64,000 nt of DNA from an uncultured Chloroflexia bacterium (GTDB lineage: Bacteria > Chloroflexota > Dehalococcoidia > GIF9 > UBA5629), in NCBI GenBank assembly GCA_963752975.1, contig CAVWAG010000004.1, positions 87,660 to 151,659 of the forward strand, read 5' to 3'. Position 1 is the first letter of the stretch; the number at the start of each line of letters is the position of its first letter. A program made the translations under genes and the position numbers. The notes under the pieces were generated by a model that worked only from the letters and a program-made list of their open reading frames with translations, ran no database searches and was not told where the DNA came from. Below are positions 20,734 through 39,033 of this stretch, piece by piece.

Positions 20734-22017
20734 TTATCTTTCCGCCATGACTACGTCACTGATCCGGGCGCTATCCCGGGCATAATATCTTGTCATTATC
20801 AGGGTCGTCACCAAGGACAATGCGGCCACGGGTATGGTCCAGAACAACCCGTTTATTATGCCCTGTGCCCCACCGCCGGTGGCATCAGATACAATGCCCA
20901 CAAAGACCGGGCCCAGAACGCCACCACCCAGCTGAGCTACCGTCAGCATGATGCCGACAGCAACAGCGCGCACCGACACGGGTATCACGTCATGCACCAA
21001 TACATTCATTACAGGAGCCATGAATGCCATTATCAGCGCTGTTGCTATATATGCGGGCAGCCAGGCCTGAAATGGTATTTTACCTACTATTAAAATGGAG
21101 ACAAGACAGGCCGCCAGTGAAAAGAAAGTGGCCGCAATTAAAAAGAGTGGCCTTCCGACTTTGTTGCGCACCTGCCAGCGGTCGGCTATTAACCCTCCCA
21201 AAGGAGCGATAAGGTTTAAAAGGCCTATTGCTCCCATGGCTGTACCCACAGTCAGAGGATCCATTTTATAGGAAAGCATGATCAGGGAAGGCACCCATGC
21301 CTGTGTGGCAAATATTAAAAAATACAGGAAGGTTGTACTGATAACGAAAAGCCAGTAGGACTTGATCTTAAACAATTCTCCCCACTGCCTGAAATATGCT
21401 TTGCTCAGGACACCCTCACCCTCCTTTCGCTCAGCCCTGTAATCCGGCAGGAAGAGCACAATAATTGCCGGGATGATGCCAAAGATACCGAATATATAAA
21501 AGGCTATGCGCCAATCATGCGTGGCGTTCAGCACGGCGCCTCCTACGAACAATCCCAGCGCCCCGCCGATCGGCATGCACATCATAAATATGCCCATAAT
21601 CCGTGTCCTTATCTCCTTGGGGAAGGTAAGCCCGAGCCAGGTTTGCCCGGCCGGCTGGTAACCGGCTTCACCTGTGCCCACCATAAATCTTGCCGCGAAC
21701 AGGTGCCATAGCTGAACGGCAAGGCCTGTTGCGATGGTGAATGCACTCCAGATAAGCGACATCACCATGATAACTTTGCGGCGCGCGAACCTGTCAGCCA
21801 GCACCGCCGTTGGGATGAGGAAAACGGCGACGCCTAATTGGAGCAGTGAAGGGAGCATGCCGGCCTGGGCATCGGTCAGGTTGAAAGAGCTCTTGATCGC
21901 CTGGAGCGATATAGCCAAGATGGAGCGGTTGGCCCAATCCGACAGTTGCAGTAAACAAAGGACGATGAGAATGGTGATCGCGGCGCCCCTGCCCACTTGA
22001 TACGTTTTCTCCTGCAT
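20734..22017 (-). CDS. MFS transporter
   Basis: About 12 predicted TM segments and an LADRFARRKV (D-R-x-x-R-R) loop motif. Paralogue of 33549-34847. The ATG at 22017 follows AAGGGGG. Confidence 0.85.
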   Translation of the reverse strand: MQEKTYQVGRGAAITILIVLCLLQLSDWANRSILAISLQAIKSSFNLTDAQAGMLPSLLQLGVAVFLIPTAVLADRFARRKVIMVMSLIWSAFTIATGLAVQLWHLFAARFMVGTGEAGYQPAGQTWLGLTFPKEIRTRIMGIFMMCMPIGGALGLFVGGAVLNATHDWRIAFYIFGIFGIIPAIIVLFLPDYRAERKEGEGVLSKAYFRQWGELFKIKSYWLFVISTTFLYFLIFATQAWVPSLIMLSYKMDPLTVGTAMGAIGLLNLIAPLGGLIADRWQVRNKVGRPLFLIAATFFSLAACLVSILIVGKIPFQAWLPAYIATALIMAFMAPVMNVLVHDVIPVSVRAVAVGIMLTVAQLGGGVLGPVFVGIVSDATGGGAQGIINGLFWTIPVAALSLVTTLIMTRYYARDSARISDVVMAER

Positions 22018-22095
22018 ATTTTCCCCCTTAGTAACCAAATCGTTTAATCAGGATGGTCATCCCCCGCCCTTGAGACGACGGCGCGCTCCTATATA

Positions 22096-22128
22096 GGGTG
22101 TGCGGGTGTCTGAGCGTCCCGCACACCC
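22096..22128. repeat. perfect 11-bp-stem hairpin between the AP-family gene and the MFS gene
   Basis: GGGTGTGCGGG-N11-CCCGCACACCC with no U-run. Probably an intercistronic stabiliser or REP-like element. Confidence 0.5.
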
Positions 22129-22137
22129 CATTACAGC

Positions 22138-24175
22138 TTAATGTCCCTGTCCCTGTGTAAGCGTCTCTTCCATCCTGACCAGTGACTCCTTCAAGTTCTT
22201 CACCCGGTCTGCCGCCAGGTTGGGATTTTCCAGCGCCTGGAAGAGAATGTTGCCCTCAGTATCCGCCGGCACCGGCCAGCTCATCAGGTGGCAGATGGTG
22301 GGGACCACGTCGGTGAGCCCGCATGTCCTCTTGAGCGAAAGGCCTTTCTTGACGCCCGGTCCGTAGTATGCCTCCAGCGCCCTCAGCTTGCCGATGCCCC
22401 ACTCGGTGGTGGGCAGGTGCGGGCCATGCTGCCCGCCGAACTCGGGGTAGATGGCATAGACCACGTCGCCCACGCCATCGCCGTGCAGCCCCAGTATCCT
22501 GGCGTCCTTGTTGGTAAGGGCCAGCGCCACGGGCCGCTTGCCGGTCTTGGGATCAACGTACGAATAGAGTGCATCGATTATCTCCTGCTGGACTTTCTCG
22601 TAGTCGGCGGGATCGACGATGCCTTCCGGGGTCGCGGCCCTTCAGGTTGACATAAACGTAAATTGTGCGCTGCGGGAAAGCCTTAGACCGTTTAATGTCG
22701 GGAGTGTGCAGGTTCAGAGTTCCCAAATCAAGTATCTCGCGTGGCAGTCTGTCGCCTGTCATGGATTTGAACAGTGTTTCAATCTGTTCGGCGCTTTCCT
22801 GGGCTTTCCTGATATCGCGTTCCCCTTCCTGACCTTCCATGGCGCAGAGCCCGTTCTGGATCAGCGGGATATAGGGGTTGAAGACCGCGCCATCGGCCAC
22901 GGCCCCGTGGTCGGAAACGAGCACGAAGAGCGTATCTTCCCCGGCGGCCTCCATGATCCTGCCCAGCATTTTATCCTGGCTTTGCAGCACCTTGAGATGC
23001 ATCTCCCAGGCCCTCTTGTTCAGGTCCTTGCTGGTACAGGTGTTTTCGTCCATCTCGGTAAGGATGGAGTGGTATACCCAGTCGATCGTGTGGATGTGCA
23101 TGAAGAACAGGTCCCATGGGTACTTGGTCATCAGCTTGGTGGCCACGTCAGCCAGGTGTATATCGTGCATCGCGGAGATCTCTTCGTAGGTATCCATCTC
23201 GTAGATGCCCATGGTGTAGCCGATCAAACCTCCCGAAAAGGCAGGGTACCCTTCCTCGCTGGTCAGTTCCCTGGCCACCTCGGGCGGGTTGGTCCAGCCC
23301 TCGACAGGGATAAATGAGCTCACAATAAGTACGAAATCTTCAGCATCCTCCGTCAGTTCCAGCAGCTTGGCCTTAAACGACGCCTCGATCTCCCTGCCGT
23401 CCTGCGTCTTGAACTTGCGGTAAATCTTCTTGCTCCACTCACCCTTGCTTAAGGTGAAGAGAGCGTCCTGCATGTCCTGGGTCGGTGAGATGGTGAGCCG
23501 GTCATAGCCCTTGCCCGCAGACTGCGTAACAAGCACGTACCATGAAAGCGGCGCCATCTGCTCAATGCTCCTATTGAACAAAACTTCGAATTTGGCCCAT
23601 AGAGGATCCTCACAGCCGGCAGGCAGGTTCTTCCAACCCTCAGCGTCCGTCAATTCGACCCTGGTGGCATTCGGGAAAAAACCATTTGTAATCACATGGT
23701 CCATGCCCAGCGGCATGCTTGACTCAAGCCCGGGATGCCCGTTGCGCATCTCGCCGATGGAAAGCCCGGCTCCCATGACCATGATCCCGTTCTTCATCCT
23801 GGAGGGCCAGGCGACCGGGTAGTTGCAAACTATGCATTTCTTGCCCACGGCATCGAGCTTGTCCCAGATGAACTCGGATTTGCAGTTCTCGCTGGAGAAG
23901 GCCTCAAAGATGTTGGCATTCACCTGCGGAGTGCCCTCCGTGTGCAGGTGGAAATCGGTCACCTTGTGCGTGCCCGGCCAGGCGCCCGTGGCTATGGTGG
24001 TCCAGTTGGGCGGTGTAATGGTGGGGTAGGGGGACAGGCAGTTTTCGGCCAACACACCCCCCTCGAAGACCTTCTTGAAGTTGGGCAGGTGACCCTCGGC
24101 AATGTGTTTTTTGATCAGGTGCGGCTCGGCGCAATCGAAGCCGATAACCGCTACCTTTTTAGGAACGTTTGCCAT
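22138..24175 (-). pseudogene. alkaline-phosphatase-superfamily protein (type I phosphodiesterase/NPP-like), paralogue 1, frameshifted near 22636
   Basis: The 540-aa and 130-aa ORFs are collinear with the intact 671/673-aa paralogues. The observed GACCCCGGAAGGC would read DPEG, like the paralogues, if one base were removed. Confidence 0.8.
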
Positions 24176-24218
24176 TTATTCATCTCCTTTGTTATTAAAT
24201 AACCTATTTATTTGCATG

Positions 24219-25598
24219 TTATTTTTCATGTCCCTTTTTCCTGTTTCTGCGTCCTATGACGCCGAGGAACAACGTGGGGGACTTTGCTTCTTTACCGGCC
24301 AATCCGGCTTCAGTGCAGGCCTTTTTAGCCTTTCGCAGGTAAAGCCAGTTCTGCCATACTCCCTTCGGCTCAAATCCGAAGTAGTTCTTCAACCAGAATG
24401 CACCACCGCTGTTCTTCAGCCTTTCACGGCGGCCCAATGTAACATGGTATCTTGACTTCAATTCCCGCGCTTCTTCATAAGTATTCACGCGCACCATCCT
24501 GCCATCAGCCCCCGGGACCACGTACCCGCTGGCTATCAGCATGTCGTATCGTTTTTTCGTCTCGTCGAAATCCGGCCCACACACGAGTGAACACTGGCCA
24601 CAGGTGAGCACGTAGGGGTCTTTCAGCCCTGTTACTCCCATGTGCTCATGGGCAGTGACCAGCAGCCTGCCGATCTCTTCCTCATTGCCAGGCAGGTTTT
24701 CATAATCAGGTATCAGGTCCTCAACGCTTTGCCTTGGGTAGAGAATGGAATTGCCGCGGCGTATAACATCGTATCGCGGCCCGCCATCCCCTGACCTTGG
24801 GCCTTCCCTCATCATCATCATCCTTATCGAGGTCCGATTATCAGGATCAGGCCGATGGTCCGAATATTCTCGTATCCAGTGCCGGCCCCAGTTGGTCCAT
24901 TTTTTATCGGACGAGATACCATGTAGACCGAAACAGGGCATGTTGCACAGGTCCAGGTTATCGCGCTTGCCGCGCGCGTGCAATTCGCCATTTATCAGCA
25001 GGTACTCTTCTTCATCATCACGAAACATCCGCAGTGTGCAGGACTTATCGCAGAGCTTGCAGGTACGGCAACGGTTATCCATGGTGTCACGGGTAGGCAA
25101 TATGGGATCGGATTTTAGCGGCGCATCGGTGATAACTGTGCCCAAATATACGGCAGCTCCATATTGCCTGGTAACTACGTTGCCGGATAGGCCAAATGTG
25201 CCCAGGCCCGCCACCACGGCGCCGAAGCGGTGAGAAAAACTTGGCTGCGGGGTAAACGGGTCAGGGGAGCGCCTGTAGGTGTTATTCGGGGGAACGGGCA
25301 AAGCCTTGTATCCCAATTCGACAATATAATCGGCAAGCTCCTTTGAAATGCGGTGCATGCGCTGGCACGATTTCAACTGTTCCAGGTTGTGAGGCCCATG
25401 GGATTTCTTGGATAGGAAATCGTAGATAGCAGGTACGTTCATCGGCAGTGCCATGGAGACGATCGCCCTGGCGCCCTTCAATGTATATGTGGGGTCGAGA
25501 GATGGCGGGCCGTCGAACCGGCCCTCTCCCGCTATACCAACCAACCCTATACCGGCTTTCCTGGCAAAATCCTTGATTTTCTCTTCATTACTCTGCAT
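24219..25598 (-). CDS. QueG/RdhA-superfamily Fe-S protein (epoxyqueuosine-reductase-like), long form
   Basis: 459 aa. N-terminal IKDFARKAGIGLVGIAG, core SHRFGAVVAGLGTFGLSGNVVTRQYGAAVYLGTVITD and CRTCKLCDKSC resemble B. subtilis QueG (recalled from memory). Paralogue of 43101-44516. Confidence 0.65.
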   Translation of the reverse strand: MQSNEEKIKDFARKAGIGLVGIAGEGRFDGPPSLDPTYTLKGARAIVSMALPMNVPAIYDFLSKKSHGPHNLEQLKSCQRMHRISKELADYIVELGYKALPVPPNNTYRRSPDPFTPQPSFSHRFGAVVAGLGTFGLSGNVVTRQYGAAVYLGTVITDAPLKSDPILPTRDTMDNRCRTCKLCDKSCTLRMFRDDEEEYLLINGELHARGKRDNLDLCNMPCFGLHGISSDKKWTNWGRHWIREYSDHRPDPDNRTSIRMMMMREGPRSGDGGPRYDVIRRGNSILYPRQSVEDLIPDYENLPGNEEEIGRLLVTAHEHMGVTGLKDPYVLTCGQCSLVCGPDFDETKKRYDMLIASGYVVPGADGRMVRVNTYEEARELKSRYHVTLGRRERLKNSGGAFWLKNYFGFEPKGVWQNWLYLRKAKKACTEAGLAGKEAKSPTLFLGVIGRRNRKKGHEK

Positions 25599-25626: not shown

Positions 25627-27303
25627 TCAGGTTCGAAAGCGACCCATGAATATCAGGAATGCCGGCCAGCTCCCTTCCAGGTTTATCTTCCCCTGCTGCA
25701 CCATGGCAGCAGTATCAGCTAATTTCAGCGCCATCATCTTGTACGTGAGCGAATCTGTTGTAACAATTGCCACAGGTGCCGGGGTGCCGGGCAGCGGCTG
25801 TCCTTCCGCAATCTCCGCTACGCCGTTGCGGACAGTGACAGTAAACTGCCTGCTCACGTCCGGGAATATAAAGAGCACGGATTCATATACGCCCCTGGCT
25901 TTGTCGGGGATAAGCCTCGGCTGCAAATTGGTAAATATCAGGTCAACGGGCAACCCCGCCACCAGGTCGGGATCGAGTTTCCCCGGAAAGTCCGGCGGTC
26001 GAGCTTTATCCAGTTCGAGGGCCGATTCCAGTAAATAAGCCCTGCCATTGGTATTAGAGGTATTATCAGCAATCTGCCGGTAGGCCGTGGCCAGCAGGCC
26101 ATCCAGCTTCGTAGCGGTGTCACCCGAGGCCAGGCCGCTGTCTTTCAATTTGGCCAGGAGATGTACCGCCCACTGAGGATCGCCATCCGCCAGGGCTTTG
26201 CCGGCCAGCCCGGCCAATTTTTCGGGCCCGCCCATCAGCTCCACCTCGCGTCTGGCCAACTCATCATGATTCAGCGGATATAGCTTGTCCGCCCTGCCGT
26301 CAAACCAGCCCTCGTTATTTGTGTATATCGCCCGCGCCGACCAGCTCACCTGGCCATACCCCTCCCAGAGGTAAGGCAATTGCGCAAGCTGGGGCGGCAG
26401 TTTGATATTTTCAGCTATCGTATCGATGTCCTGGCCTGCGTTGGCGCGCCTGATCACTTCGTCCCGTACCCACTGTATGGCATCCCGGTAGTTGGTCAGT
26501 ATCTCTTCGATCCGGGCTCTCCCGTTCACCGGGCTTGTATGCGAGGGGACGAGATGCTCCGGTTGCAGCCGCCGCATATCGTCCAGGCTGTTTATCCACC
26601 CGTCGGTCGGGCGCGGGCGGCTCCCGCGTATGGTGTACAGGTTGGGGAAAGCACTGTAGTAATCATCCGCACACAGAAGCGTATTGTCTGCGGGTATCCA
26701 GACGAAGAGAGTATCATCCGTCTCGCCCGGGGCGGTGTGAAGTTCTATTGTCAGGCCACCGATCTCCAGCGACTTCATGCCCGCGAAAGTGTCGGTGGGC
26801 ATAATCGTGCCGGTCTCGGCCAGTTCTTCAAGTGTGTAGGATTTCAGCACAGGCCCGATGGCAGAGCACGGAAGATCCTCGCGTGACAAATGGTATCCGA
26901 ATTGCCTGTAGCCGCGCGCCTTCTCCGCCTGCATGAAGGTGCCGTATTGCTTCACGAAATTGCCAACGAAGTTTTCCTCGGCCCATATGCGCGTACCGGG
27001 TTCCATCCATGCGCTCGTCCCGCCGACATGGTCAATATGGGTATGCGTATATATAATAGCCTTGACCGGTCCGGAAGGCGCGCTTTCGGAAAAGGCTTTC
27101 TTTATCGCTCGTGCGGCCGCCGGGCACTGGGACGTATCGACGATAACGTTACCTTCCTCGGTATGTATCAGCTCCGTATTGGCCAGGTCATAGCCGACGG
27201 CCACCCAAACATGCTCGGACACCTGCTCGACGCGCGGCGGCCCGATGTCATCCCGGCAATGCTGCGTTATGGTCTCAATTGCGCCCACATTCCTGACCCT
27301 CAC
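25627..27303 (-). CDS. MBL-fold alkyl/aryl sulfatase (SdsA1/BDS1 type) with dimerisation and SCP2-like C-terminal domains
   Basis: 558 aa with THTHIDHVGG (HxHxDH), PGETDD and PSH motifs, and a C-terminal SCP2-like segment. The ORF opens with GTG and has no RBS; see 27300-27398. Confidence 0.8.
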   Translation of the reverse strand: MRVRNVGAIETITQHCRDDIGPPRVEQVSEHVWVAVGYDLANTELIHTEEGNVIVDTSQCPAAARAIKKAFSESAPSGPVKAIIYTHTHIDHVGGTSAWMEPGTRIWAEENFVGNFVKQYGTFMQAEKARGYRQFGYHLSREDLPCSAIGPVLKSYTLEELAETGTIMPTDTFAGMKSLEIGGLTIELHTAPGETDDTLFVWIPADNTLLCADDYYSAFPNLYTIRGSRPRPTDGWINSLDDMRRLQPEHLVPSHTSPVNGRARIEEILTNYRDAIQWVRDEVIRRANAGQDIDTIAENIKLPPQLAQLPYLWEGYGQVSWSARAIYTNNEGWFDGRADKLYPLNHDELARREVELMGGPEKLAGLAGKALADGDPQWAVHLLAKLKDSGLASGDTATKLDGLLATAYRQIADNTSNTNGRAYLLESALELDKARPPDFPGKLDPDLVAGLPVDLIFTNLQPRLIPDKARGVYESVLFIFPDVSRQFTVTVRNGVAEIAEGQPLPGTPAPVAIVTTDSLTYKMMALKLADTAAMVQQGKINLEGSWPAFLIFMGRFRT

Positions 27304-27398
27304 CGTGCTCCGGAAGAGCAGCCGGCGCCCTGCAATAAAACCAGGGCCAGCAATAATACTGACAATATACCGCTGAAATTGTTATGCAATCTGTTCAT
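27300..27398 (-). CDS. 32-aa lipoprotein signal-peptide ORF, probably the displaced N-terminus of the sulfatase
   Basis: MNRLHNNFSGILSVLLLALVLLQGAGCSSGAR* ends exactly where the sulfatase ORF begins, in a frame offset by 1 nt. Not in the supplied track. Confidence 0.45.
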   Translation of the reverse strand: MNRLHNNFSGILSVLLLALVLLQGAGCSSGAR

Positions 27399-27442: not shown

Positions 27443-28276
27443 CTATTTGCCTTTGTTCTTTTTATGTTCTTCAAACCTTTCCCGCAGGTATGGCCAGCCC
27501 GGGGTTATGCCTTCCGTCAGACTCATGGCCATCATGGTGTGCGGAGGTTGCCCGACATTCATATGGCCCCCGGTCAGGAAGAGGTTTTCATCGACCTTAA
27601 ATATCTTCTCCGCCGGCATGCCTATAGCGATCTCAGTTTCATGAGCAGCAGCCACAGAATGGTCACCGAATCCGGGGATCACGATCTGCGGAACACCTGT
27701 GATCCATGGAACAAACCCTCCCTTCTGGCATGACTCTCCAAATCCCGAGAAATCTGATGAGGGGAAATCTTTACCGTCGTATACCATGGCATGGATAAGG
27801 TGCATCACATTAAGGCTGTTGCCGTAGGCCGTGACTGTATCTGGTATTAATTTTGCGTCCTGCAGCGGGGCACACACAAAACCGATATATCCTTTCATTT
27901 TCTCCGGGTAATTTTTACCCCAGCGTTTAATATAGAGGTTCCAGACGCCGGTTTCCGCCTCCAGGTCCTTGTGCCAGCCCTGCAGTATCTGGCTATGAAT
28001 GATCTCATCCGGGGTGGCCTCTTCCCACATATGCCAGGCTGTGGCAGCGGTGCAGAAACAGTCCTTGCCCGTCATGGCGATCGAGAAACCGAACCTCCTG
28101 GCATACGTCAGCGCCTGGCAGAGGCTGGCCTGCTGTCCCATCGCGCTGGGCCTGATGCTCCCTTCAGGTATCTCCGCCTCGCTCTTGATATATTTGATAC
28201 CTATGGGATAGGTAGCCAGGTGCAATTTGTCGTATACGCTTTTGCCCGCCTTCCTGTATTCTTCCAGTGTTCTCAT
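27443..28276 (-). CDS. DUF169 (COG2043-like) family protein
   Basis: 277 aa. The pattern YPIGIKY...SLCQALTYARRFG...C.C resembles DUF169. Paralogue of 46012-46853. Confidence 0.6.
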   Translation of the reverse strand: MRTLEEYRKAGKSVYDKLHLATYPIGIKYIKSEAEIPEGSIRPSAMGQQASLCQALTYARRFGFSIAMTGKDCFCTAATAWHMWEEATPDEIIHSQILQGWHKDLEAETGVWNLYIKRWGKNYPEKMKGYIGFVCAPLQDAKLIPDTVTAYGNSLNVMHLIHAMVYDGKDFPSSDFSGFGESCQKGGFVPWITGVPQIVIPGFGDHSVAAAHETEIAIGMPAEKIFKVDENLFLTGGHMNVGQPPHTMMAMSLTEGITPGWPYLRERFEEHKKNKGK

Positions 28277-28287: not shown

Positions 28288-28866
28288 CTAATCATTATTC
28301 TTGTTCAGTAACGCTTCTTGCAGCATACGCACGGCGGTATCCTCATACCGCGAAATGTCCAGGTTCCGCCACAATAGGCATAATTTGGCAATCCACTGGA
28401 CAAATCCGCCGGTCAACTCCGATGCTATTACCGGTTCGTAATCCTGCATGTCACCGTTAGCAACCCGCTCTCGGAAAAAACGCCGTAAAATTTTCTGTCC
28501 CCTGGGATTCTCAATGGCCGCACCGCCGGCAGCTAATCCCAGGCGCAAATCAAGCAGTTCCAGTAAATCCCGCTCCCGGGAAGCTACGGCTAACGCGGCA
28601 TGCACCGCTTCTTTTATGGCTATGCGCGCGTCAGGATTTTGCATGGCCCGAAGAAGCGCATCAGCCACCATCTCCTGGTAACGGTCGCATAGAGCGTCAA
28701 GCATGGCCTGCTTGGACTCAAAGTAAAGGTACACCGTCCCCTTGGCAACCCCGGCAAGCTGAGCGATCTCTGCTACATGCGCCTTCGCATAGCCATTCTG
28801 CTTGAACACTTCGCGCGCGGCTCGTAATATATCCTCACGCCGGTTGGGATCAGCGAACTTGGCCAT
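28288..28866 (-). CDS. TetR/AcrR family transcriptional regulator
   Basis: 192 aa with ILRAAREVFKQNGYAKAHVAEIAQLAGVAKGTVYLYFESKQAML. Confidence 0.9.
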   Translation of the reverse strand: MAKFADPNRREDILRAAREVFKQNGYAKAHVAEIAQLAGVAKGTVYLYFESKQAMLDALCDRYQEMVADALLRAMQNPDARIAIKEAVHAALAVASRERDLLELLDLRLGLAAGGAAIENPRGQKILRRFFRERVANGDMQDYEPVIASELTGGFVQWIAKLCLLWRNLDISRYEDTAVRMLQEALLNKNND

Positions 28867-28872: not shown

Positions 28873-29307
28873 TCACTTTACCCGCTTGATGCTGGCCTCG
28901 ACATCTATACCCTCGCGCAGCGAGTACATGGCCAGCGTATCGCGGCTGACGATCTCCAGGCACTCGTCTAAAATCGACTGGTCGGCGTCGCCGATATCCA
29001 CCTCTATCTCTACCTGTATCTCATTAATCCGCGTGCGCAAAACCGAGTCCTTCTCCTTATTTGAGGCGGAACGGCCGGTCAGTGACCGCACATCAGCGCC
29101 GCGTTTGATCAAATCCGATGCCAGCGTGGTAGCCACACAGCACAGGGCAGCCGCGTTTAATATGCGGTTGGCCCAGTGCTTGCGGCCCTCCGGCGAAAGA
29201 TCTTTGTTGCTCACCTGGAACACAGGTACACCATCCGGCGTCATGGTGAAGAGATGGCCATCGCTGCCATCCCTACGGTATTCGACGACACAATCTGTCA
29301 GTTCCAT
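28873..29307 (-). CDS. OsmC/Ohr-family-like protein
   Basis: 144 aa from the ATG at 29307 (AAAGGAGG RBS). Its size and the AAALCCVATTLAS segment resemble OsmC-like proteins. Weak call. Confidence 0.5.
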   Translation of the reverse strand: MELTDCVVEYRRDGSDGHLFTMTPDGVPVFQVSNKDLSPEGRKHWANRILNAAALCCVATTLASDLIKRGADVRSLTGRSASNKEKDSVLRTRINEIQVEIEVDIGDADQSILDECLEIVSRDTLAMYSLREGIDVEASIKRVK

Positions 29308-31494: not shown

Positions 31495-33516
31495 CTACGG
31501 GGCGTCATCTTTTTTATCCCAGGGCTGGCGCTGGGTGCGTTGCAGCGCTAACTCCATCCTGGCTAAACCCTCTTTCAGCTTGGCAATTTCATCCGGTTTG
31601 AAATTGGGGGTTTTGAAAGTCTGGTAGAGCACGGCGCCCTCGGTTGTCGAAGGCAGCGGCAGGTCCATCAGGTAGCAGATGGTCGGCACTATGTCGATCA
31701 GGTTGCAGGTCCGCTCCAGCCTGTAGCCCTTCTTAATGCCAGGCCCGGTAAAAGTCAACAGCCCTTTGAGAGAACCGATGCCCCACTCCGCTGTAGGCAA
31801 TATGTTGCCATGCTGGCCGGCCACCCAGGGATAGACGGCGTAGATCACGTCACCCACCCAGTCACCGTACAGGCCCAGTATGCGGGCATCCTGCTTGGAT
31901 AAAGCAAGGGACACCGGGCGTTTACCAGTCTTGGGATCAACGTAAGTGAGCAATGCATCGATGATTTGCTGCTGCACTTTTTGGTAATCGGCAGCTTCCA
32001 CGATGCCTTCAGGATCGCGTCCCTTGAGGTTGATGTAAACATACAGTTCCCTCTGGGGGAAACACTTGGATTTACTGACATTGGGCTGCTGGGCAATCGC
32101 CCTGAATGTCTGTATCTCACCCTGGAAGCGGGTCGTGCTTGTTACCGGTATGGATAAAGTATTAACCTGCTTCTCTTCAAGTACCGTCAAGCCCGCCGCG
32201 ATGAGCGGTTTAAAAGGATCGAAGATGACGCCATCGGCAACGGCGCCGTGGTCAGAAACGAGTATGAATAGCGTCTCCTTATCGCAGGCCTGCATTATCT
32301 GCGCCAGCATCCGGTCCTGGGCCTCGTATATCTTCAAGTGTGCATCCCAGGCCGCTTGCCTCTTGATCTCATCCTTGGTCAGGTCAGGGTCCATCTCTGT
32401 CAATATCAGGTGGTATGCCCAATCCGGCGAATGGGCGTGCATGAAAAAAAGGTCCCATTCATTTTTACTCAGCAGCATACTGGCGGCATTGGCCAGCCAC
32501 TTCGTGTAGAAATCGTTGATCTCCACGAAAGTATCCAATTCGTACCACTCGAGTACAAACCCGAGTATGCCTCCCGCGTTTAAAGTATAGCCATCTCTGG
32601 TCTGTAGCTGGCCAGCAATCTCAGGGGGGCTGCTCCAGCCCGATTTGAAGCCGATCTGGGAAATATAGAAACGCAGATCCTCAGCCTCGTCGGATAGTTC
32701 CAGCAGCTTGCAGCGGAAGTCTGCCTCCTGCTCTGTGCCATCATTAAGCTTCAACTTCGTAGTTATGTTAGGGCTCCACTCACCCACTGACAACGTGCAG
32801 AAGGCATCCTTAAAGTCCTTTGTCGGGGATAAGGTGACGCGGTCATAACCGCCGCCGCCTGACTGGCGCGCCAGCAAATACCAGACAGGCTGTATCAAAT
32901 CCGGGTGAGCGCCTACCATGATCAGGCCAGCCTCTATTTCCATCGGGTCTTTTTCCTTGGCAGGCAGGTTTTTCCAACCTGTGGCGGGTTTGAAAGCACC
33001 TTTCACAGCCCTCGGGTAGATACCGGTGGTAATCAGCTGATCAAGGCAACCTTTAACGCTGGAACTCAAACCCATGATCCCATCACGGTTTTCGCCTACC
33101 GAAAGTCCACTGCCGCCAACAGTGATCCCGTGCTTTAGCTTGGCCGGCCATGAACCGGGGTAGTTCAGTACAATACACTTCTTGCCCGCCCGGTCAGCCG
33201 CATCCCAGAGGTATTCAGCCTTGCAACGCTCACTGCTGAACGCCTGGACGATGTTGGCATTGGTGGGGGTAGTCCCGTGAAGGTGTACATGGAAGTCGGT
33301 TATGCCATGTGTACCCGGCCAGGCGCCGGTGGCGATGGAGGCCCAGTTGGGCGGTGTAACGGTCGGGTAGGGGACAAGGCAATTGTCGGCGATGACACCG
33401 CCTTCAATAAGTTTCTTGAAAGTGGGAAGGTGCCCGTCCTTGATATGTTTCTCAATCAGGTGGGGCTCTGCGCAGTCCAGCCCGATTATTGCCACTTTCT
33501 TCGGTACATTTGCCAT
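31495..33516 (-). CDS. alkaline-phosphatase-superfamily protein (type I phosphodiesterase/NPP-like), paralogue 3
   Basis: 673 aa, in tandem with paralogue 2 and carrying the same motifs (IGLDCA, PTVTPPNW, VSDHGA). Confidence 0.8.
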   Translation of the reverse strand: MANVPKKVAIIGLDCAEPHLIEKHIKDGHLPTFKKLIEGGVIADNCLVPYPTVTPPNWASIATGAWPGTHGITDFHVHLHGTTPTNANIVQAFSSERCKAEYLWDAADRAGKKCIVLNYPGSWPAKLKHGITVGGSGLSVGENRDGIMGLSSSVKGCLDQLITTGIYPRAVKGAFKPATGWKNLPAKEKDPMEIEAGLIMVGAHPDLIQPVWYLLARQSGGGGYDRVTLSPTKDFKDAFCTLSVGEWSPNITTKLKLNDGTEQEADFRCKLLELSDEAEDLRFYISQIGFKSGWSSPPEIAGQLQTRDGYTLNAGGILGFVLEWYELDTFVEINDFYTKWLANAASMLLSKNEWDLFFMHAHSPDWAYHLILTEMDPDLTKDEIKRQAAWDAHLKIYEAQDRMLAQIMQACDKETLFILVSDHGAVADGVIFDPFKPLIAAGLTVLEEKQVNTLSIPVTSTTRFQGEIQTFRAIAQQPNVSKSKCFPQRELYVYINLKGRDPEGIVEAADYQKVQQQIIDALLTYVDPKTGKRPVSLALSKQDARILGLYGDWVGDVIYAVYPWVAGQHGNILPTAEWGIGSLKGLLTFTGPGIKKGYRLERTCNLIDIVPTICYLMDLPLPSTTEGAVLYQTFKTPNFKPDEIAKLKEGLARMELALQRTQRQPWDKKDDAP

Positions 33517-33548: not shown

Positions 33549-34847
33549 TCAGCATTCGAAAGTTATTTCTCGGCGTAAACTCGTCAGTACATTTGCACTA
33601 TCGCCGGGGTAATATTTGGTTAAAATCAGGTTGGTTACAATTGAGAGCGCGAAAAACGGAAGTGTCCATATCATCCCCCACTGCAACCCTGAAGCCCCTC
33701 CCCCCAAATAGTCAGAGATAGCCCCGACAGCAACAATGCCCAGCGTAGCCCCCAATAGCTGCGCTATCAGACCGGATATGCCTATGGCCGTCGACCTTAA
33801 ACCCGGAGTTATAACATCATTGATAATGGTTAACCCGACCGGCAGGTTTAATCCGACGAAAACTGTCGCCAGGGCAAGCAATACCATAAACAATATAACT
33901 GATTGACCCAGGCTAAAAAATGCTGCGATATAGAAAATAAGGGCCAGGAAGGCTGTCAAAGCCATGAATAACGGCCTCCCGTTTTGATGGCTCTTCTGCC
34001 AGCGATCGGCTATTACGCCGCCCAGTGGAGCAAGCAGTAACATCAGGGCAACCCAGCCGAACTTCTGCCCTGCTTCAGCAGCATCCATATGATAAGCTCG
34101 CATCAGTAGCGCAGGTGTCCACACACTCATAGCTGTCGTGGTACTCAGGAAAAAAATCCCACCGATAGTCGGCATCCAGTATGAAGGGCATTTGAATATC
34201 TTTGACCAATCCTTGAAATATTTTCTGCTCAGCGCCGCCTCGCCCTTTTCCTTGACCGTTTTATAATCGGGCAGAAAATATACAATCGCTGCGAGGATGA
34301 CACCGGGTATGCCGAACACGTAAAACGGCGTACGCCAATCGCCGGTGGAAGTTATCAGCCAGCCGCCCACGATCAGGCCCACAACCATGCCCAGCTGACT
34401 GCAGGCAAAAAATATTGCTATTATAATGGACCTTATATCCTTGCGGAAAGAAACAGAGAGCCAGGCCTGCCCCACCGGAGAATACCCGGCTTCACCTGCA
34501 CCGACCATGAAACGCGCAGCTAACATTTGAACGATATTGGTACAAAATCCCGTCAACAATGTGGCAGCGCTCCAGATCAGGGCCATAACTGCAACGATCT
34601 TGCGCCGTGCCCACCTGTCGCCCAGTACGGCGGCAGGGATCATCATCACAGCTATACCCGCTGTGACCAGGGCCGCCAGGCTGCCGGCCTGCGCATCGTT
34701 CAATTTAAAATATGCCTTAACCGCCTCCAGCGCCACGGTCATGATGGACCGGTCTGCCATATTGATGAGCCAGAGCAAAGACAGTATGACCAGTATGGTA
34801 ATCGCTGAACCCCTGCCAACCTCGTACTTTTTCTCTTCCAAATTCAT
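33549..34847 (-). CDS. MFS transporter
   Basis: 432 aa, multi-TM, with an LGDRWARRKI loop motif. Paralogue of 20734-22017. Confidence 0.85.
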   Translation of the reverse strand: MNLEEKKYEVGRGSAITILVILSLLWLINMADRSIMTVALEAVKAYFKLNDAQAGSLAALVTAGIAVMMIPAAVLGDRWARRKIVAVMALIWSAATLLTGFCTNIVQMLAARFMVGAGEAGYSPVGQAWLSVSFRKDIRSIIIAIFFACSQLGMVVGLIVGGWLITSTGDWRTPFYVFGIPGVILAAIVYFLPDYKTVKEKGEAALSRKYFKDWSKIFKCPSYWMPTIGGIFFLSTTTAMSVWTPALLMRAYHMDAAEAGQKFGWVALMLLLAPLGGVIADRWQKSHQNGRPLFMALTAFLALIFYIAAFFSLGQSVILFMVLLALATVFVGLNLPVGLTIINDVITPGLRSTAIGISGLIAQLLGATLGIVAVGAISDYLGGGASGLQWGMIWTLPFFALSIVTNLILTKYYPGDSANVLTSLRREITFEC

Positions 34848-34919: not shown

Positions 34920-35927
34920 TTACGCCTTATTCTTGACCGGTATTCCGGTCGAGCAGGGCACCCCTACCGAGCACAGCCCACAGCCGTAGATGAAGATGTG
35001 ATAATGCTTGTTACAATAAGCCAGCGATTTGGATACCCGCTGATAACAGGTTTCCTTGTTATGTCCATTCTCATCGATAGCCTGAACTGGGCATTTTGCC
35101 GCGCATTTCAGGCACTTCACACCATTATGGTGCAGGCAATTGGCGTGTATGTTTTCCGGCCGCAACCGGTCAGGCTGCAGCCGCAGGTTAACAATGAAGC
35201 TGCCGCAGCGGTGTGCGGCGCCCTTTTCGGTGATGAGGAAGTCGTGCATGCCAAATGTCCCCAGGCCTGCCGCGTAGGCTATATGCCGGTGTGACCAGGG
35301 CGATGCCCAGCCTACCCTAGGGTAACGCTGCTTTCGCATCAGGGGCGTGACATCAGGAGCCACCGCCAGCACACCTCTATCCATCAAATATGACACTATC
35401 TCCCTGACCATGGCCTGGCTGAATATCTCTCCCAGCAAGCGGGTATGCGCCCAGCGCTCGGATGGCCACTCGGTCATGGCCGCGTTCTCCTGCCGGGTCC
35501 TTTCCGTTATCGGCATTACGAAAGATATCACACTCAGGTCAGCGGCCTTCGGTGCAGGGACTCCGTTGTTGGCAGCCTGCCATGCCATCCACTCCTCCGG
35601 TGTCAGGTGGTGAGGCCCGATGATTTTCTTGTATTCCAGGAAAATAGGGTCATCGCCCCGAACAAAGCTGACCAGCGGCTTATCGAATATCTTCTCACCG
35701 GCAAATGGATACTCCATCGCATTCATAGGGTGATTTTCCACTTTCTGCTCGATAGTTTCCCGGAACCATTTTTCGTCAAGAACCGGGGCGCCGGGGGCAG
35801 GGACATAGTCAGCATTGAATTTGGGCTGCCGTGGATGCCCTTTGCCTTTCATCTCGCCAACTGCGTTCTTAATGCCCCTGATATCTGTGATAAAAGATAG
35901 TCTCCGGTAACTATTGCGCACCGTCAT
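34920..35927 (-). CDS. QueG/RdhA-like 4Fe-4S protein, short form
   Basis: 335 aa with SHRHIAYAAGLGTFGMHDFLITEKGAAHRCGSFIV, then CLKCAAKCP and GCGLCSVGVPC cluster motifs. No Tat signal. Confidence 0.6.
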   Translation of the reverse strand: MTVRNSYRRLSFITDIRGIKNAVGEMKGKGHPRQPKFNADYVPAPGAPVLDEKWFRETIEQKVENHPMNAMEYPFAGEKIFDKPLVSFVRGDDPIFLEYKKIIGPHHLTPEEWMAWQAANNGVPAPKAADLSVISFVMPITERTRQENAAMTEWPSERWAHTRLLGEIFSQAMVREIVSYLMDRGVLAVAPDVTPLMRKQRYPRVGWASPWSHRHIAYAAGLGTFGMHDFLITEKGAAHRCGSFIVNLRLQPDRLRPENIHANCLHHNGVKCLKCAAKCPVQAIDENGHNKETCYQRVSKSLAYCNKHYHIFIYGCGLCSVGVPCSTGIPVKNKA

Positions 35928-36037: not shown

Positions 36038-36451
36038 TTATTCGGGAAATATTGCTTTGACAGACGACGTTGCCTCGGAAAGTGCACGCGTGGCACCCGT
36101 TGCACGCATCACCTTGGCCATATTGCCGGTGAGCTTGAGTTGCCTGGTCAGCAGCGCCTGGGTCCCGTCAAGTTTCTTTTCATTGATCTTTTTCCACGTG
36201 GACAGATTGCCGGCAATGGTGAATTCCGGCTTGTATTTGTCCTTGTCTTTCTCCTCGATTATTTCAGATTTGCGGCACTTCCCATGCCATAGGTCGAGGT
36301 ACAAATACCTTCTTTCTGTAATCGGGCCGCCCGGTTCCAGTATAAAATAGAAATCACCCTCCCAGTCTTTGGCGGCCTCTTCATATTTCTTGCTCCCATT
36401 GATAGCCTCGACAAAAGCATCGAGCCATCCCTGGCTTGCGAACTCGTACAT
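36038..36451 (-). CDS. SCP2 sterol-carrier-like domain protein
   Basis: 137 aa. The W.DAF..AIN N-terminus and the C-terminal LKLTGNMAKVMR are typical of SCP2 domains. Confidence 0.7.
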   Translation of the reverse strand: MYEFASQGWLDAFVEAINGSKKYEEAAKDWEGDFYFILEPGGPITERRYLYLDLWHGKCRKSEIIEEKDKDKYKPEFTIAGNLSTWKKINEKKLDGTQALLTRQLKLTGNMAKVMRATGATRALSEATSSVKAIFPE

Positions 36452-36498: not shown

Positions 36499-38097
36499 TT
36501 ATTTCAGTTTGCGCAACTCAGCCCTGAGCATTTTACCCAGTACATTCTTGGGTAGAGCGTCGATAAACTGCACCTGCCTGGGAGTTTTAAACTTTGGCAA
36601 TGATTTGCTGCAATACTCGATGATCTCTTGCTCGCTGTACCTTTCCCCCGGCTTAAGTACCACGAAGGCCTTGATCTCCTCTCCATAAACGCGGTCTGCC
36701 ACTCCGACACAGCACGCTTCAGCCACCCCGGGATGGCTGGATAGGACATCCTCGACCTCTTTGGGAGATATGTTTTCGCCGCCTCGTATAATGAGGTCTT
36801 TTTTACGGTCGGTTATATAGAAATAGCCGTCCTCGTCCCTGTGGCCGATATCACCGGTATGCAGCCAGCCTTTCTTGAGGGTCTCCGCTGTCTCTTCCGG
36901 CAGGTTCCAGTACCCTTTCATAACAGCCGCTCCTTTAATCACCAGCTCACCGGTAGCACCGGCCGGCAGTTCACGGTCATTATTATCGAAGACGCTCATC
37001 TTGTTACAGGCCAGCATGTTTATGCCTATTGAGCCATACTTTGGCGGGGCTGATCCCGGGTTGCCTGACGTGGTAGCCCCCGACTCAGTCATGCCCCAAC
37101 CCTCGTCGATGTGCACACCGACCTTCTCCTTCCACTTGAGGCCGACACCCGGATCAAGCGCGGCGGCACCGCAGGCACAGAACTTGAGCGACGACAGGTC
37201 GTATTTATCCAGGTCCGGGTAGTCCAGCAGGTGTACATACATAGTAGGCACAAAGGCAACATAGCCTATTTTCAGCTCCTGTATCAGCCTCAGGGCTTCC
37301 GCCGGGTTCCACCACTTCATCACGGCGAACCTCCCGCCTATCAGGGCGCCGAAGTTCAGGAAAGCGATACCATACGAGTGGGAAAGAGGTAACACTGCCA
37401 GGAACAGTATATTCCGGTTGGACCCGGTCACCATCTGCTCCTCTTCCACCATCCTGTGAGTTTTTTCATCCATCTGCCGTACTATATTACTCACAGTGGT
37501 GGGTGCACAAAGGAACTGGAAATCGGCAAAGCAGACCGCGTTTATCCAGAGCGTGTAATGGGTGTGCATTACACCTTTGGGATTGCCCGTTGTGCCGGAG
37601 GTATAAATCAGGGCTGCCAGGTCGTCATTATCCATGTCCTCGATGCGGCACTCGCCGCTGCTATCCTTTAGCAGCTTGCTGTAATACAGCGTCTCCGGCA
37701 CGTCGGTTTTATCAATGAGCAAGATATGCTTCAGATCAGGGGCATTTTCCTGGGCAGTGCGGACCCAGGGCAGAAAATCCGAGGTGGTGATGGTCACTTT
37801 GGCGCCGCAGTCCTTGTAAATATATGATATCTGGTCAGGTTTGAGTATAGGATTCATCGGGACTATGACTGCACCTATCCTGTAGACTGCGTTGAATGCC
37901 ACAAATATCTCGATACAATTAGGTAATTGCGTAACTACACGGTCGCCCTTCCTTACGCCCAGCGACTTCAAGGCATTGCCGAGGCGGCTGGCCATCCTGT
38001 TCAATTCTGCATTGGTATACCATCTGCCCTCAAAATAGCAGGCTTCGTATTCCCCGAATTTCCGCAACCCGTCTTCATACAAGTTAGCCAGGTTCAT
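36499..38097 (-). CDS. AMP-dependent synthetase/ligase (acyl-CoA synthetase family)
   Basis: 532 aa with YTSGTTGNPKGV, WGMTE, GDIGHRDEDGYFYITDRKKDLI and KNVLGKMLRAELR motifs. Confidence 0.9.
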   Translation of the reverse strand: MNLANLYEDGLRKFGEYEACYFEGRWYTNAELNRMASRLGNALKSLGVRKGDRVVTQLPNCIEIFVAFNAVYRIGAVIVPMNPILKPDQISYIYKDCGAKVTITTSDFLPWVRTAQENAPDLKHILLIDKTDVPETLYYSKLLKDSSGECRIEDMDNDDLAALIYTSGTTGNPKGVMHTHYTLWINAVCFADFQFLCAPTTVSNIVRQMDEKTHRMVEEEQMVTGSNRNILFLAVLPLSHSYGIAFLNFGALIGGRFAVMKWWNPAEALRLIQELKIGYVAFVPTMYVHLLDYPDLDKYDLSSLKFCACGAAALDPGVGLKWKEKVGVHIDEGWGMTESGATTSGNPGSAPPKYGSIGINMLACNKMSVFDNNDRELPAGATGELVIKGAAVMKGYWNLPEETAETLKKGWLHTGDIGHRDEDGYFYITDRKKDLIIRGGENISPKEVEDVLSSHPGVAEACCVGVADRVYGEEIKAFVVLKPGERYSEQEIIEYCSKSLPKFKTPRQVQFIDALPKNVLGKMLRAELRKLK

Positions 38098-38190
38098 CAG
38101 CTTCCCTCCATAAAAAATTTATATGAAGTAACATCGAACAGCCAGCCTTCACCGAAATCCTCACCCTTTGATTTAAATTATTCATAAATG

Positions 38191-38219
38191 AATAAATGAC
38201 TGACCGCCAGTCATTTATT
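38191..38219. promoter_or_regulatory. AT-rich perfect 12-bp inverted repeat (AATAAATGACTG-N5-CAGTCATTTATT)
   Basis: Lies between the SDR stop and the ligase start on the minus strand. It could be an operator or a weak terminator. Confidence 0.3.
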
Positions 38220-38259
38220 TTAACACCCCGGTGATTTTGTCAAGCCCCCGCCCGTGCTT

Positions 38260-39033
38260 TTATCCAAGTTCTCTGAGCAGCGGTATTGCCCACCACTGCC
38301 ATACGGGCGCTACGTAGCGCCGTTTGGGTCTCTTATCCTCAACAGCTCTGACAATCTGCCGGGCTATGCTGGCCGTATCCTTCAGCTCTGACCTTATGAT
38401 CATAGACTCCGATTTCTTGATAATGTCCATGTGCCCCTTGTAAAGTACGCTGGAATCTATCCATTCGTATTTCTTGCCTATGTTCTTCTGGTTGAAATCT
38501 GTGTGGTAGCCCCCGGGATTGACCATGACAACGTCGATGCCAAACGGTTTCAACTCTGTGCGCAGAGAAAATGCCACGCTCTCAAGCGCGAACTTCGACA
38601 TACCGTAAGGAGCCAGGAAAGGGGTGGGCATGAGCCCGGCCATTGAGCCGATGAATATGATCCTTCCATTTTGCCTCTCAGCCATTCGGGGAATAAATCT
38701 GCGGGTAAGCTCCAGGGCGCCGAAAACGTTTACGTCCAGGACACGTTTGACCCTCTCAAGGTCAATCTCGGCCAGCGGCCCGGAATCGCCGATCGCGGCA
38801 TTATTTATCAGAACGTCTATGTCCCACTGGCCGGCTTTTTGCCTGTCTGCCGCATCCGTAACATCGATCTTCTCGACAGTCACGTTCGCTTTATTTTCCC
38901 CCAACGCGGCCCTGACGCTCTCAATCGACGCCACATTGTGCACGGTTGCATAGATGGTGTGCCCTCTGGCAGCCAGGCGCCGGGCGGCATCAAGCCCGAT
39001 TCCACCCCTGCATCCGGTTATCAATATTTTCAT
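38260..39033 (-). CDS. SDR family oxidoreductase
   Basis: 257 aa with the TGCRGGIG (TGxxxGxG) and NNAA motifs. Confidence 0.85.
   Translation of the reverse strand: MKILITGCRGGIGLDAARRLAARGHTIYATVHNVASIESVRAALGENKANVTVEKIDVTDAADRQKAGQWDIDVLINNAAIGDSGPLAEIDLERVKRVLDVNVFGALELTRRFIPRMAERQNGRIIFIGSMAGLMPTPFLAPYGMSKFALESVAFSLRTELKPFGIDVVMVNPGGYHTDFNQKNIGKKYEWIDSSVLYKGHMDIIKKSESMIIRSELKDTASIARQIVRAVEDKRPKRRYVAPVWQWWAIPLLRELG

Follow-up and report, generated by a model that had tools for sequence, protein, structure and literature searches.

A 28-kb gene island encoding hydrolases, a haloalkane dehalogenase and RdhA/QueG-like proteins in an uncultured Dehalococcoidia bacterium

We analysed a 64,000-nucleotide (64-kb) stretch of contig CAVWAG010000004.1 (assembly GCA_963752975.1, positions 87,660 to 151,659) from an uncultured member of the Dehalococcoidia. 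This whole stretch is referred to here as the window. Its central feature is a run of minus-strand genes between positions 20734 and 39033 that encode hydrolases of the alkaline phosphatase (AP) superfamily, major facilitator superfamily (MFS) transporters, an alkyl sulfatase, Fe-S proteins resembling the reductive dehalogenase RdhA and the epoxyqueuosine reductase QueG, and enzymes of coenzyme A (CoA) thioester metabolism. The nearest public relatives, LacPavin_0419_WC90_MAG_53_8 and A14_bin-2372, are metagenome-assembled genomes (MAGs) of Dehalococcoidia/Chloroflexota recovered from anoxic lake water; their versions of the 459-aa Fe-S protein are 95% identical to the one in the window. Families were assigned by Pfam and NCBIfam profile searches of the window proteins with curated or gathering cut-offs, and the conserved genes and sites are as follows.

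18867–19385, minus: DUF3795 protein (Pfam PF12675, E 6.9e-19)
19769–20662, minus: metallo-beta-lactamase (MBL)-fold hydrolase, RNase Z/Apyc1-like, with N-terminal membrane anchor, last gene of the cluster (Pfam Lactamase_B and Lactamase_B_2)
20734–22038, minus: MFS transporter a, anion:cation symporter (ACS)-like (PF07690 E 4.7e-51, OATP E 3.4e-10)
22138–24175, minus: AP-family 1 (AP1), NPP-type, interrupted, in pieces 22553–24175 and 22138–22530 (PF01663 E 9.4e-29)
24219–25598, minus: long RdhA/QueG-superfamily Fe-S protein, 459 aa (sub-cut-off RDH/QueG matches and fold)
25627–27398, minus: SdsA1-type MBL alkyl sulfatase lipoprotein, main open reading frame (ORF) 25627–27303, signal peptide 27300–27398 (Alkyl_sulf_dimr, Lactamase_B, Alkyl_sulf_C)
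27443–28276, minus: DUF169 protein (PF02596 E 1.9e-35)
28288–28866, minus: TetR-family regulator inside the cluster (PF00440 E 9.3e-17)
28873–29346, minus: OsmC-like protein (PF02566, 28.7 bits against a cut-off of 27.5, marginal)
29366–31381, minus: AP-family 2 (AP2), cytoplasmic NPP-type metallo-hydrolase, 671 aa (PF01663 E 8.4e-34)
31495–33516, minus: AP-family 3 (AP3), 673 aa, paralogue of AP2 (PF01663 E 2.1e-33)
33549–34847, minus: MFS transporter b, with OATP-like features (PF07690 E 1.3e-50)
34920–35927, minus: short RdhA/QueG-superfamily Fe-S protein, 335 aa (sub-cut-off QueG/RDH matches)
36038–36451, minus: SCP2 lipid-carrier-like protein (PF02036 E 3.1e-13)
36499–38097, minus: acyl-CoA ligase, long-chain fatty-acid type, a variable insertion in the cluster (AMP-binding E 4e-86)
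38191–38219: perfect palindrome AATAAATGACTG-N5-CAGTCATTTATT, candidate operator between the SDR and ligase genes
38260–39033, minus: short-chain dehydrogenase/reductase (SDR), first gene of the minus-strand run (adh_short E 1.5e-45)
39220–39237, plus: operator-like motif GAACATTTGATAGATTAG, copy 1, between the SDR gene and the divergent Fe-S gene
39313–40512, plus: 399-aa protein with C-terminal 2x[4Fe-4S] ferredoxin domain (Fer4 families)
41373–42341, minus: haloalkane dehalogenase of subfamily I (HLD-I) (NF002043, 360.1 bits against a cut-off of 265)
42391–42408, minus: operator-like motif, copy 2, between the dehalogenase and TetR genes
42421–43071, plus: TetR regulator, o216-type, TetR_N and TetR_C_24 (Pfam)
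43101–44516, plus: paralogue of the long RdhA/QueG-like protein, 471 aa (blastp 60% identity; RDH E 4.4e-8, below cut-off)
44638–45030, plus: PNPOx-like FMN-binding split-barrel protein (PF01243 E 1.2e-19)
45176–45970, plus: CCG (HdrB/GlpC-like cysteine-rich) domain protein (PF02754 E 3.4e-10)
46012–46853, plus: second DUF169 gene, interrupted (PF02596 E 1.4e-19 on the first piece, 71.2 bits)

The ORF map placed all 15 minus-strand ORFs of the central run where a preliminary description of this DNA had put them, with intergenic gaps of 6–162 nt (6–113 nt in most of the run); that description had given the gaps as mostly below 120 nt, and only the one between the SDR and ligase genes (162 nt) is larger. 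Its family calls were all borne out by Pfam and NCBIfam, marginally so for the OsmC-like protein, and its label "QueG/RdhA-like" was a fair one, the RDH and QueG models being the only matches and lying far below cut-off. The assignment of AP1 to its family likewise stood, while the gene itself proved to be split. The cluster was confirmed and its 18-kb limits were not: the conserved region reaches downstream to the DUF3795 gene and upstream to position 46853, and the functional unit is a 28-kb island (about 18.9–46.9 kb) larger than the 15-gene run. The MBL hydrolase gene follows the last MFS gene in all close relatives, with the DUF3795 gene downstream of it in five loci (L005, L009, L010, L012, and L014; L numbers denote loci retrieved from other genomes and contigs). 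Divergent from the dehalogenase lies a second operon comprising the genes for the TetR regulator, the RdhA-like paralogue, the PNPOx-like flavoprotein, the CCG protein, and the second DUF169 protein. A triad of RdhA-like, MFS, and AP genes occurs in duplicate within the one cluster, as judged from sequence paralogy.

Four genes in the window are interrupted. Compared with L008, L009, and L011, AP1 carries a 1-nt insertion at about 22624, and its C-terminal fragment (a 130-aa ORF) aligns to residues 534–661 of AP2 and AP3. The signal-peptide ORF of the sulfatase was set in another frame by a 10-nt deletion after the lipobox; intact 593-aa lipoproteins are encoded in L008 and L009, and the proposal that this small ORF is the displaced N-terminus of the sulfatase was thus correct. 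The second DUF169 gene has a 1-nt deletion (T5 to T4) near 46461 and is intact, at 280 aa, in L025 and L075. In addition, an MFS gene at 3814–5090 is split into ORFs of 195 and 237 aa. Programmed frameshifting or recoding was considered and rejected, since the relatives' genes are intact and, of the four lesions, two change a single base within a short homopolymer. The interruptions could be assembly or homopolymer errors, or real gene decay; in part they are probably due to assembly or sequencing error.

Hydrolases, carriers and RdhA/QueG-like proteins

All three AP proteins passed the PF01663 gathering score of 23 bits (AP1, 101.5; AP2, 118.1; AP3, 116.8), and the paralogues AP2 and AP3 share 68% identity. 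They belong to a family of approximately 670 aa (COG3379) with over 1249 homologues, whose sole annotation is "AlkP superfamily phosphohydrolase/phosphomutase", and for which a literature search returned no characterised member; exact-sequence look-ups of AP2 and of protein P0077 gave no record. An alignment of 17 members disclosed invariant residues D14, T54 (in PTVTPPNW), D365/H369, D422/H423, and H568. By motif these correspond to a complete NPP/PhnA-type bimetal site, with a Thr nucleophile and six metal ligands, in a mapping based on motif correspondence and on partial alignments with ENPP1, ENPP4, and PhnA. No signal peptide was recognised at the AP N-termini on inspection of the sequences. 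Because the site appears complete and the signal peptide is lacking, the most likely role of the AP proteins is that of active hydrolases of phospho- (or sulfo-)esters in the cytoplasm. The family also has a conserved C-terminal tail, ...RQPWDKH-x-CA, and an invariant C15 beside the first metal ligand. Of the two catalytic Cys of the OsmC/Ohr peroxiredoxin family, the OsmC-like protein has C70, invariant in 41 homologues, while the second is kept in only 28 of the 41.

The sulfatase contains MBL, dimerisation, and SCP2-like C-terminal domains (PF00753, PF14863, and PF14864), all above cut-off. Over all three domains it matched SdsA1 (2cfu, E 1.1e-50) and Pisa1 (2yhe, E 3.4e-43), and its Zn motif, THTHIDHVGG, aligns to SdsA1. 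The second MBL protein, encoded at 19769–20662, gave sub-threshold matches to RNase Z and GntH and has a hydrophobic N-terminus, MRGKKMIVIGIIIVFVIAVAALAAV.

Judged by its sequence, the product of 41373–42341 is a bona fide HLD-I haloalkane dehalogenase. Searches of the Protein Data Bank (PDB) matched it to 6f9o (E 5.2e-83), 4mj3, and DhlA (E 1.5e-57), and its motifs CQDWGG (nucleophile Asp and halide-binding Trp) and GHFLQED (catalytic His) align with those of 6f9o and 4mj3. Translation likely starts at M25, at position 42269.

The two MFS carriers are 47% identical. For MFS a, the best NCBIfam match is a D-galactonate transporter subfamily, below cut-off; MFS b matches OATP with 61.6 bits against a gathering cut-off of 25.8. 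The ligase reached 457.6 bits with PRK06187, below the cut-off of 476.

No Pfam match was obtained for the long and short RdhA-like proteins. With the RDH model TIGR02486 (cut-off 160.35) the long protein scored 40.7 bits (E 2.5e-10), the short protein 21.9 bits (E 1.3e-4), and the 471-aa paralogue 33.3 bits; with the QueG model TIGR00276 (cut-off 200) the long protein scored 30.0 bits and the short protein 27.7 bits (E 1.3e-6). In 21 homologues of the long protein, with a mean column identity of 62%, nine Cys are invariant (C177/C180/C183/C187 and C218/C222/C333/C336/C340). They provide two [4Fe-4S]-binding motifs C-terminal to the core, the first of which aligns to PceA and QueG. The profile of the long family matched PceA in the PDB (E 1.4e-6) through colinear weak segments. 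Its AlphaFold2 model (mean predicted local distance difference test score, pLDDT, 84.7) was compared with the PDB by Foldseek, where matches 1–46 were all RdhA or QueG proteins, followed by MMACHC. These 46 matches had E values from 4e-7 to 7e-4, with roughly 255 of the 459 residues aligned at a template modelling score of about 0.32; the C-terminal part of some 200 residues forms a family-specific domain. The short protein matched PceA (8q4h, E 6.9e-6) and QueG (5d6s, E 1.2e-4), and its comparison with the long-family profile gave an hhalign probability of 95% (E 4.5e-8). The model of the long protein thus shows the nitroreductase-like core fold of the RdhA/QueG/CblC corrinoid enzymes. From this model and the profiles together, the long and short proteins are assigned to two new families with the RdhA/QueG fold, neither of which reaches any family cut-off.

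Among 1.84 billion representatives searched, only about five full-length clusters of the long family were found at 50% identity, and many proteins of 320–400 aa and 750–800 aa have residues 1–240 in common with it. The 750–800 aa proteins match only the N-terminal 190–220 residues and so present the long-family core in a larger architecture.

At the N-termini of the three RdhA-like proteins, no RR motif with an accompanying hydrophobic region was found that would indicate a Tat signal. The short protein begins MTVRNSYRRLSFITDIRG, in which a twin-arginine-like YRRLSF is followed by charged residues rather than by a Tat hydrophobic region; this may be a remnant from an RdhA ancestor that was exported. 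Beside the three genes no rdhB-like anchor gene is present, the flanking gaps of 28–110 nt being too small for one.

DUF169 (27443–28276) scored 123 bits against the PF02596 cut-off of 27 and has invariant C53, C75, and C183. Its AlphaFold2 model (pLDDT 93.4) found no fold match in the PDB (best Foldseek E 2.8), and a sequence search of the PDB was also empty. In several phyla, a DUF169 gene adjoins that of the long RdhA-like protein. In other phyla, genes for relatives of the 399-aa ferredoxin-domain protein frequently come after a long RdhA-like gene. This 399-aa protein was considered as a fourth RdhA-like protein and rejected: only the ferredoxin Cys motif aligns, and its PDB matches are generic polyferredoxins.

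Conservation among relatives and candidate operators

To place the island in context, species-representative genomes were scanned with the 459-aa protein as anchor (75 loci) and metagenome contigs with the AP protein as anchor (76 loci), and all ORFs of both sets were searched with the window proteins. Over 15 independent contigs from related freshwater Dehalococcoidia (L001–L005, L008–L012, L014, L083–L090, L095, and L115) have the same gene order, a recurrence that makes the co-localisation not a matter of chance. The grouping set out in the preliminary description therefore extends to related Dehalococcoidia MAGs and contigs, as far as those whose long RdhA-like protein is about 71% identical. 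At that identity, L005 retains the order, the two AP copies in tandem, and a sulfatase gene without interruption. The island is found widely in metagenomes of lakes, peat, and sediments.

Among the ten close AP-anchored loci, DUF169 and TetR genes were present in all 10, MFS and OsmC-like genes in 9 each, the long RdhA-like gene in 8, the short one in 7, and the sulfatase gene in 5. The cluster TetR gene (28288–28866) keeps its place between the OsmC-like and DUF169 genes. AP3 is present in L005, L008, L014, L086, and L090 and absent in L001 and L010; the ligase is absent in the latter two and present in L086, L025, and L029. L001 thus lacks one AP copy and the ligase, and it also lacks the sulfatase. 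In L001, L010, L084, and L115 the haloalkane dehalogenase gene heads the cluster in the same direction, with the SDR gene immediately after it. The CCG protein is conserved in L025, L029, and L075.

At greater distance the set comes apart. The 19 distant AP-anchored loci include an OsmC-like gene in 11, marking it as a deeply conserved partner, and RdhA-like, DUF169, and MFS genes in none; here the AP homologues adjoin TRAP or Opp transporters, CoA-transferases, and OsmC. The 42 distant long-RdhA-like loci, from Deltaproteobacteria, Actinomycetota, Spirochaetota, and Planctomycetota, contain DUF169 in 10, the ferredoxin-domain protein in 11, and the short RdhA-like protein in 5, with no AP or MFS gene; in one of the distant loci (L007) an SCP2 gene adjoins the long RdhA-like homologue. 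All component families together were not seen across distant lineages, the full set being limited to related Dehalococcoidia. The older modules are AP with the OsmC-like protein (and MFS), the long RdhA-like protein with DUF169 (and Fe-S/CCG proteins), the short RdhA-like protein with an MBL protein, and the dehalogenase with TetR. Because these modules separate at distance and the relatives vary in content, the island is best described as a lineage-specific mosaic of older modules, not an ancient operon.

In Desulfosudaceae and other MAGs (L049, 1–11003; L036, 4300–18000; L061), genes for DUF169, a long RdhA-like protein, two Fer4-domain proteins, and a short RdhA-like protein are clustered without AP or MFS genes, next to those for a molybdopterin oxidoreductase, DUF362, a C_GCAxxG_C_C protein, and a GST-like protein.

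An exact 18-nt motif, GAACATTTGATAGATTAG, occurs twice in the window (39220–39237 and 42391–42408), whereas two matches were obtained in 0 of 100 shuffles. In 2.17 Mb of fetched loci searched with up to 3 mismatches, all 17 matches lie just upstream of an o216-type TetR gene or of the cluster-head gene. The former position (13–51 nt upstream) was seen in 13 relatives' loci, and as head gene the loci of the L001 type have HLD, L025 and L086 have SDR, and L085 and L087 have SCP2. At the sequence level the case for the motif as a candidate operator is good, and the TetR protein encoded at 42421–43071 is, from the position of the motif, its presumed binder. The motif would tie the dehalogenase, the unit of SDR, SCP2, short RdhA-like, MFS, and AP genes, and the second RdhA-like/DUF169 operon into one regulon. 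The palindrome at 38191–38219 is kept between the SDR and ligase genes in L019, L025, and L029, wherever the ligase is present; travelling with the ligase in this way, it suggests that the ligase arrived with its own control. An Rfam search of the window gave no cobalamin riboswitch and no other match. Consensus promoter and terminator scans gave counts modestly above those of shuffles, the consensus being uninformative for this phylum.

The flanks of the island hold further genes. A 30-kb span holds four AMP-forming acyl-CoA ligase paralogues (7915–9684, 10393–11913, 14478–16154, and 36499–38097), and saccharopine-dehydrogenase-like and amidohydrolase genes are found at 2530–7893; together these suggest a broader CoA-dependent catabolic region. 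A Mutator-family transposase fragment of 288 aa (13263–14129, minus strand; partial profile match) lies approximately 5 kb outside the island. The second DUF169 gene is immediately followed by a multi-PAS GGDEF diguanylate cyclase gene (47098–49203, plus strand), and at 49330–53555 (plus strand) are genes for two HGD-D/benzoyl-CoA-reductase-like subunits, one of which resembles "double-cubane cluster" reductases, and two BcrAD/BadFG ATPases. This four-gene set resembles an ATP-dependent system of the radical reductase or dehydratase kind and is followed by a 350-aa ORF with a faint tocopherol-cyclase match. Sterol or aromatic degradation, raised by the SCP2 gene and the nearby benzoyl-CoA-reductase-like genes, was considered, and no specific marker for it was found.

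Possible function and rival explanations

The components belong to known superfamilies, and together they form a putative catabolic island containing new protein families. The named enzymes are of types that remove good anionic leaving groups (halide, sulfate, phosphate), either from aliphatic carbon or from esters of phosphorus or sulfur, and are accompanied by organic-anion carriers, a lipid carrier, a dehydrogenase, and a CoA ligase; we therefore propose, tentatively and with somewhat less than even confidence, that this is a TetR-controlled accessory island for the uptake of amphipathic aliphatic compounds, removal of their halide, sulfate, and phosphate groups, and subsequent CoA activation. 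In such a scheme, the lipid-anchored alkyl sulfatase and the membrane-anchored MBL hydrolase would attack ester groups outside the cell, and the two ACS/OATP-like MFS carriers would import organic anions. In the cytoplasm, the three 670-aa NPP-type bimetal hydrolases would cleave phospho- or sulfo-ester bonds, the HLD-I dehalogenase would remove halide hydrolytically, and the three RdhA/QueG-fold proteins might carry out a reductive step, either dehalogenation or a QueG-like C-O reduction, with DUF169, the CCG protein, the PNPOx-like flavoprotein, and the ferredoxin-domain protein as candidate partners. The SDR, the long-chain-type acyl-CoA ligase, and SCP2 could then oxidise, activate, and carry the lipophilic product, and the carbon skeleton would pass into the CoA-dependent metabolism of an anoxic freshwater Dehalococcoidia host.

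With respect to the preliminary description, the suggestion of halogenated substrates gained independent support from the adjacent haloalkane dehalogenase, from its place at the cluster head in several relatives, and from the 18-nt motif link. Its view of a single unit is upheld by the conserved order and common motif and contradicted by the separation of the AP and RdhA-like modules at distance (0 of 42 and 0 of 19 loci) and by the likely presence of several regulatory units. As for a cobalamin/Fe-S-dependent step, the Cys motifs and the RdhA/QueG fold agree with it, the cobalamin part following from fold similarity alone. No described pathway was found to match the island, in line with the earlier impression, and the literature was empty for its key families: our search gave no functional information on DUF169, COG3379, chlorosulfolipid catabolism, or Dehalococcoidia in combination with AP or QueG.

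A number of observations weigh against the proposed function. Neither aldehyde dehydrogenase nor beta-oxidation genes are present among the annotated island genes. Four genes in the window are interrupted, three of which (AP1, sulfatase, second DUF169) are intact in relatives. The RdhA-like families lie far below the RDH and QueG cut-offs, and their corrinoid binding is predicted from the fold only. AP genes are missing from all 42 distant RdhA-like loci, as are RdhA-like and DUF169 genes from all 19 distant AP loci, and L086 and L127 are without the long RdhA-like gene. Because one close relative or another has lost the long RdhA-like gene, sulfatase, ligase, or an AP copy (and others add such genes), the genes do not constitute an obligate linear pathway; because there are three TetR genes and a separate ligase palindrome, several transcription or regulatory units are likely.

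Many of these points are shared by the main rival, which we consider unlikely, if the strongest of the alternatives: independent small operons (AP with OsmC and MFS; DUF169 with RdhA-like; sulfatase; dehalogenase; ligase) would have accreted in one variable region with no common substrate or pathway. The occurrence of the modules apart in other phyla, the differing gene content of close relatives, the three TetR genes with a ligase-specific palindrome, and the transposase fragment 5 kb off all fit accretion, as does the generic redox character of the distant RdhA-like loci, with their Fer4 proteins, molybdopterin oxidoreductase, DUF362, and GST. However, accretion does not readily account for the tight co-directional packing, with gaps of 6–113 nt in most of the run, an order kept to about 71% protein identity, or duplication of the RdhA-like, MFS, and AP triad. 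The 18-nt motif also speaks against it, being common to the dehalogenase/TetR and SDR-led units and tracking the head gene, be it HLD, SDR, or SCP2.

Nutrient acquisition is a common role of AP-superfamily enzymes and alkyl sulfatases, and three AP paralogues and a sulfatase in one cluster could accordingly free phosphate or sulfate for nutrition, the carbon skeleton being irrelevant. We hold such scavenging to be highly improbable: the AP enzymes appear cytoplasmic, the regulators are TetR-type with no Pho, Pst, or Cys regulon genes among the annotated neighbours, the SDR, acyl-CoA ligase, SCP2, and dehalogenase point to carbon use, and the distant AP homologues adjoin CoA-transferases and TRAP or Opp transporters. 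Least probable of all is a non-canonical organohalide respiration in which the RdhA-like proteins are energy-conserving terminal reductases and the other genes accessory, an idea suggested by the host class, by the RdhA/QueG fold and two Fe-S motifs of the long protein, and by the CCG and flavoprotein partners, but opposed by the lack of a Tat signal with hydrophobic region, the lack of room for an rdhB-like gene, the scores far below the RDH cut-off, the predicted cytoplasmic location, and a transporter/hydrolase context that looks catabolic.

A bolder version of the proposed uptake and group-removal function concerns natural lipids. Chlorosulfolipids occur in freshwater chrysophyte algae, and it is conceivable, though improbable, that the RdhA/QueG-fold families with DUF169 and the CCG/flavin partners are an unrecognised cytoplasmic corrinoid/Fe-S reductase system for degrading halogenated or sulfated lipids of this kind. 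It would work together with the haloalkane dehalogenase, the alkyl sulfatase, and the NPP-type esterases in non-respiring freshwater Dehalococcoidia. If true, this would be the first catabolic route for halogenated/sulfated lipids and the first function for DUF169 and the COG3379-type AP enzymes.

To our knowledge, most environmental Dehalococcoidia are without canonical reductive dehalogenases, and their livelihood is poorly known. The island, conserved and apparently co-regulated in part, supplies testable candidates for how they process organohalogen, organosulfate, and organophosphate matter. Four uncharacterised families, namely the 670-aa AP family (with an OsmC-like partner), DUF169, and the two RdhA/QueG-like ones, can here be studied by experiment in a single setting that has a defined candidate operator. 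Should the RdhA-like proteins bind a corrinoid, they would add to the few reductase chemistries that depend on B12.

Comparison with known systems

The combination of phospho-ester hydrolysis with dehalogenation would be reminiscent of the aerobic degradation of haloalkyl organophosphate esters by Sphingobium and Sphingomonas of the TCM1 type. That route proceeds through a phosphotriesterase, a phosphodiesterase, and a phosphatase to haloalcohol dehalogenation. In contrast, no phosphotriesterase was found in the island, which is widespread in pristine lakes and peat, and the resemblance is one of analogy only.

A second resemblance is to sodium dodecyl sulfate degradation by SdsA1 of Pseudomonas aeruginosa and Pisa1. 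The island has a three-domain sulfatase with the HxHxDH motif, exported in relatives, and a dehydrogenase and fatty-acyl-CoA ligase are encoded near it. It differs in that the host is an anaerobe and the sulfatase is optional among relatives, here being cut from its signal peptide.

The AP enzymes resemble the NPP/phosphonoacetate hydrolase branch (PF01663, E about 1e-33; ENPP1 6WET, PhnA 3SZY) in the Thr of a T-P-P-N motif and in the invariant D, D..H, DH, and H ligands, and stretches at both of their termini can be aligned with ENPP1, ENPP4, and PhnA. Unlike these, they are about 670 aa long, with roughly 450 residues between the aligned terminal pieces, and have a predicted cytoplasmic location, a PWDKH-x-CA tail, and an ancestral OsmC-like pairing.

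The predicted fold of the long protein matches only the corrinoid/Fe-S enzymes RdhA (PceA 4UQU/8Q4H, NpRdhA 4RAS) and QueG (5D08, 5D6S). The AGLG-x-G...G core motif and the first CxxCxxCxxxC align, and a second Cys cluster is present. The protein departs from these enzymes in lacking a Pfam match, a Tat signal, and an RdhB gene, in its own C-terminal domain, and in its recurrent partner DUF169.

The closest agreement is that of the dehalogenase with the HLD-I enzymes DhlA, DmrA (4MJ3), and DpcA (6F9O), with the family cut-off passed and the catalytic motifs aligned. What sets it apart is its surroundings: an anaerobic Dehalococcoidia setting, a position beside RdhA-like genes, and a candidate TetR operator in common with the esterase cluster.

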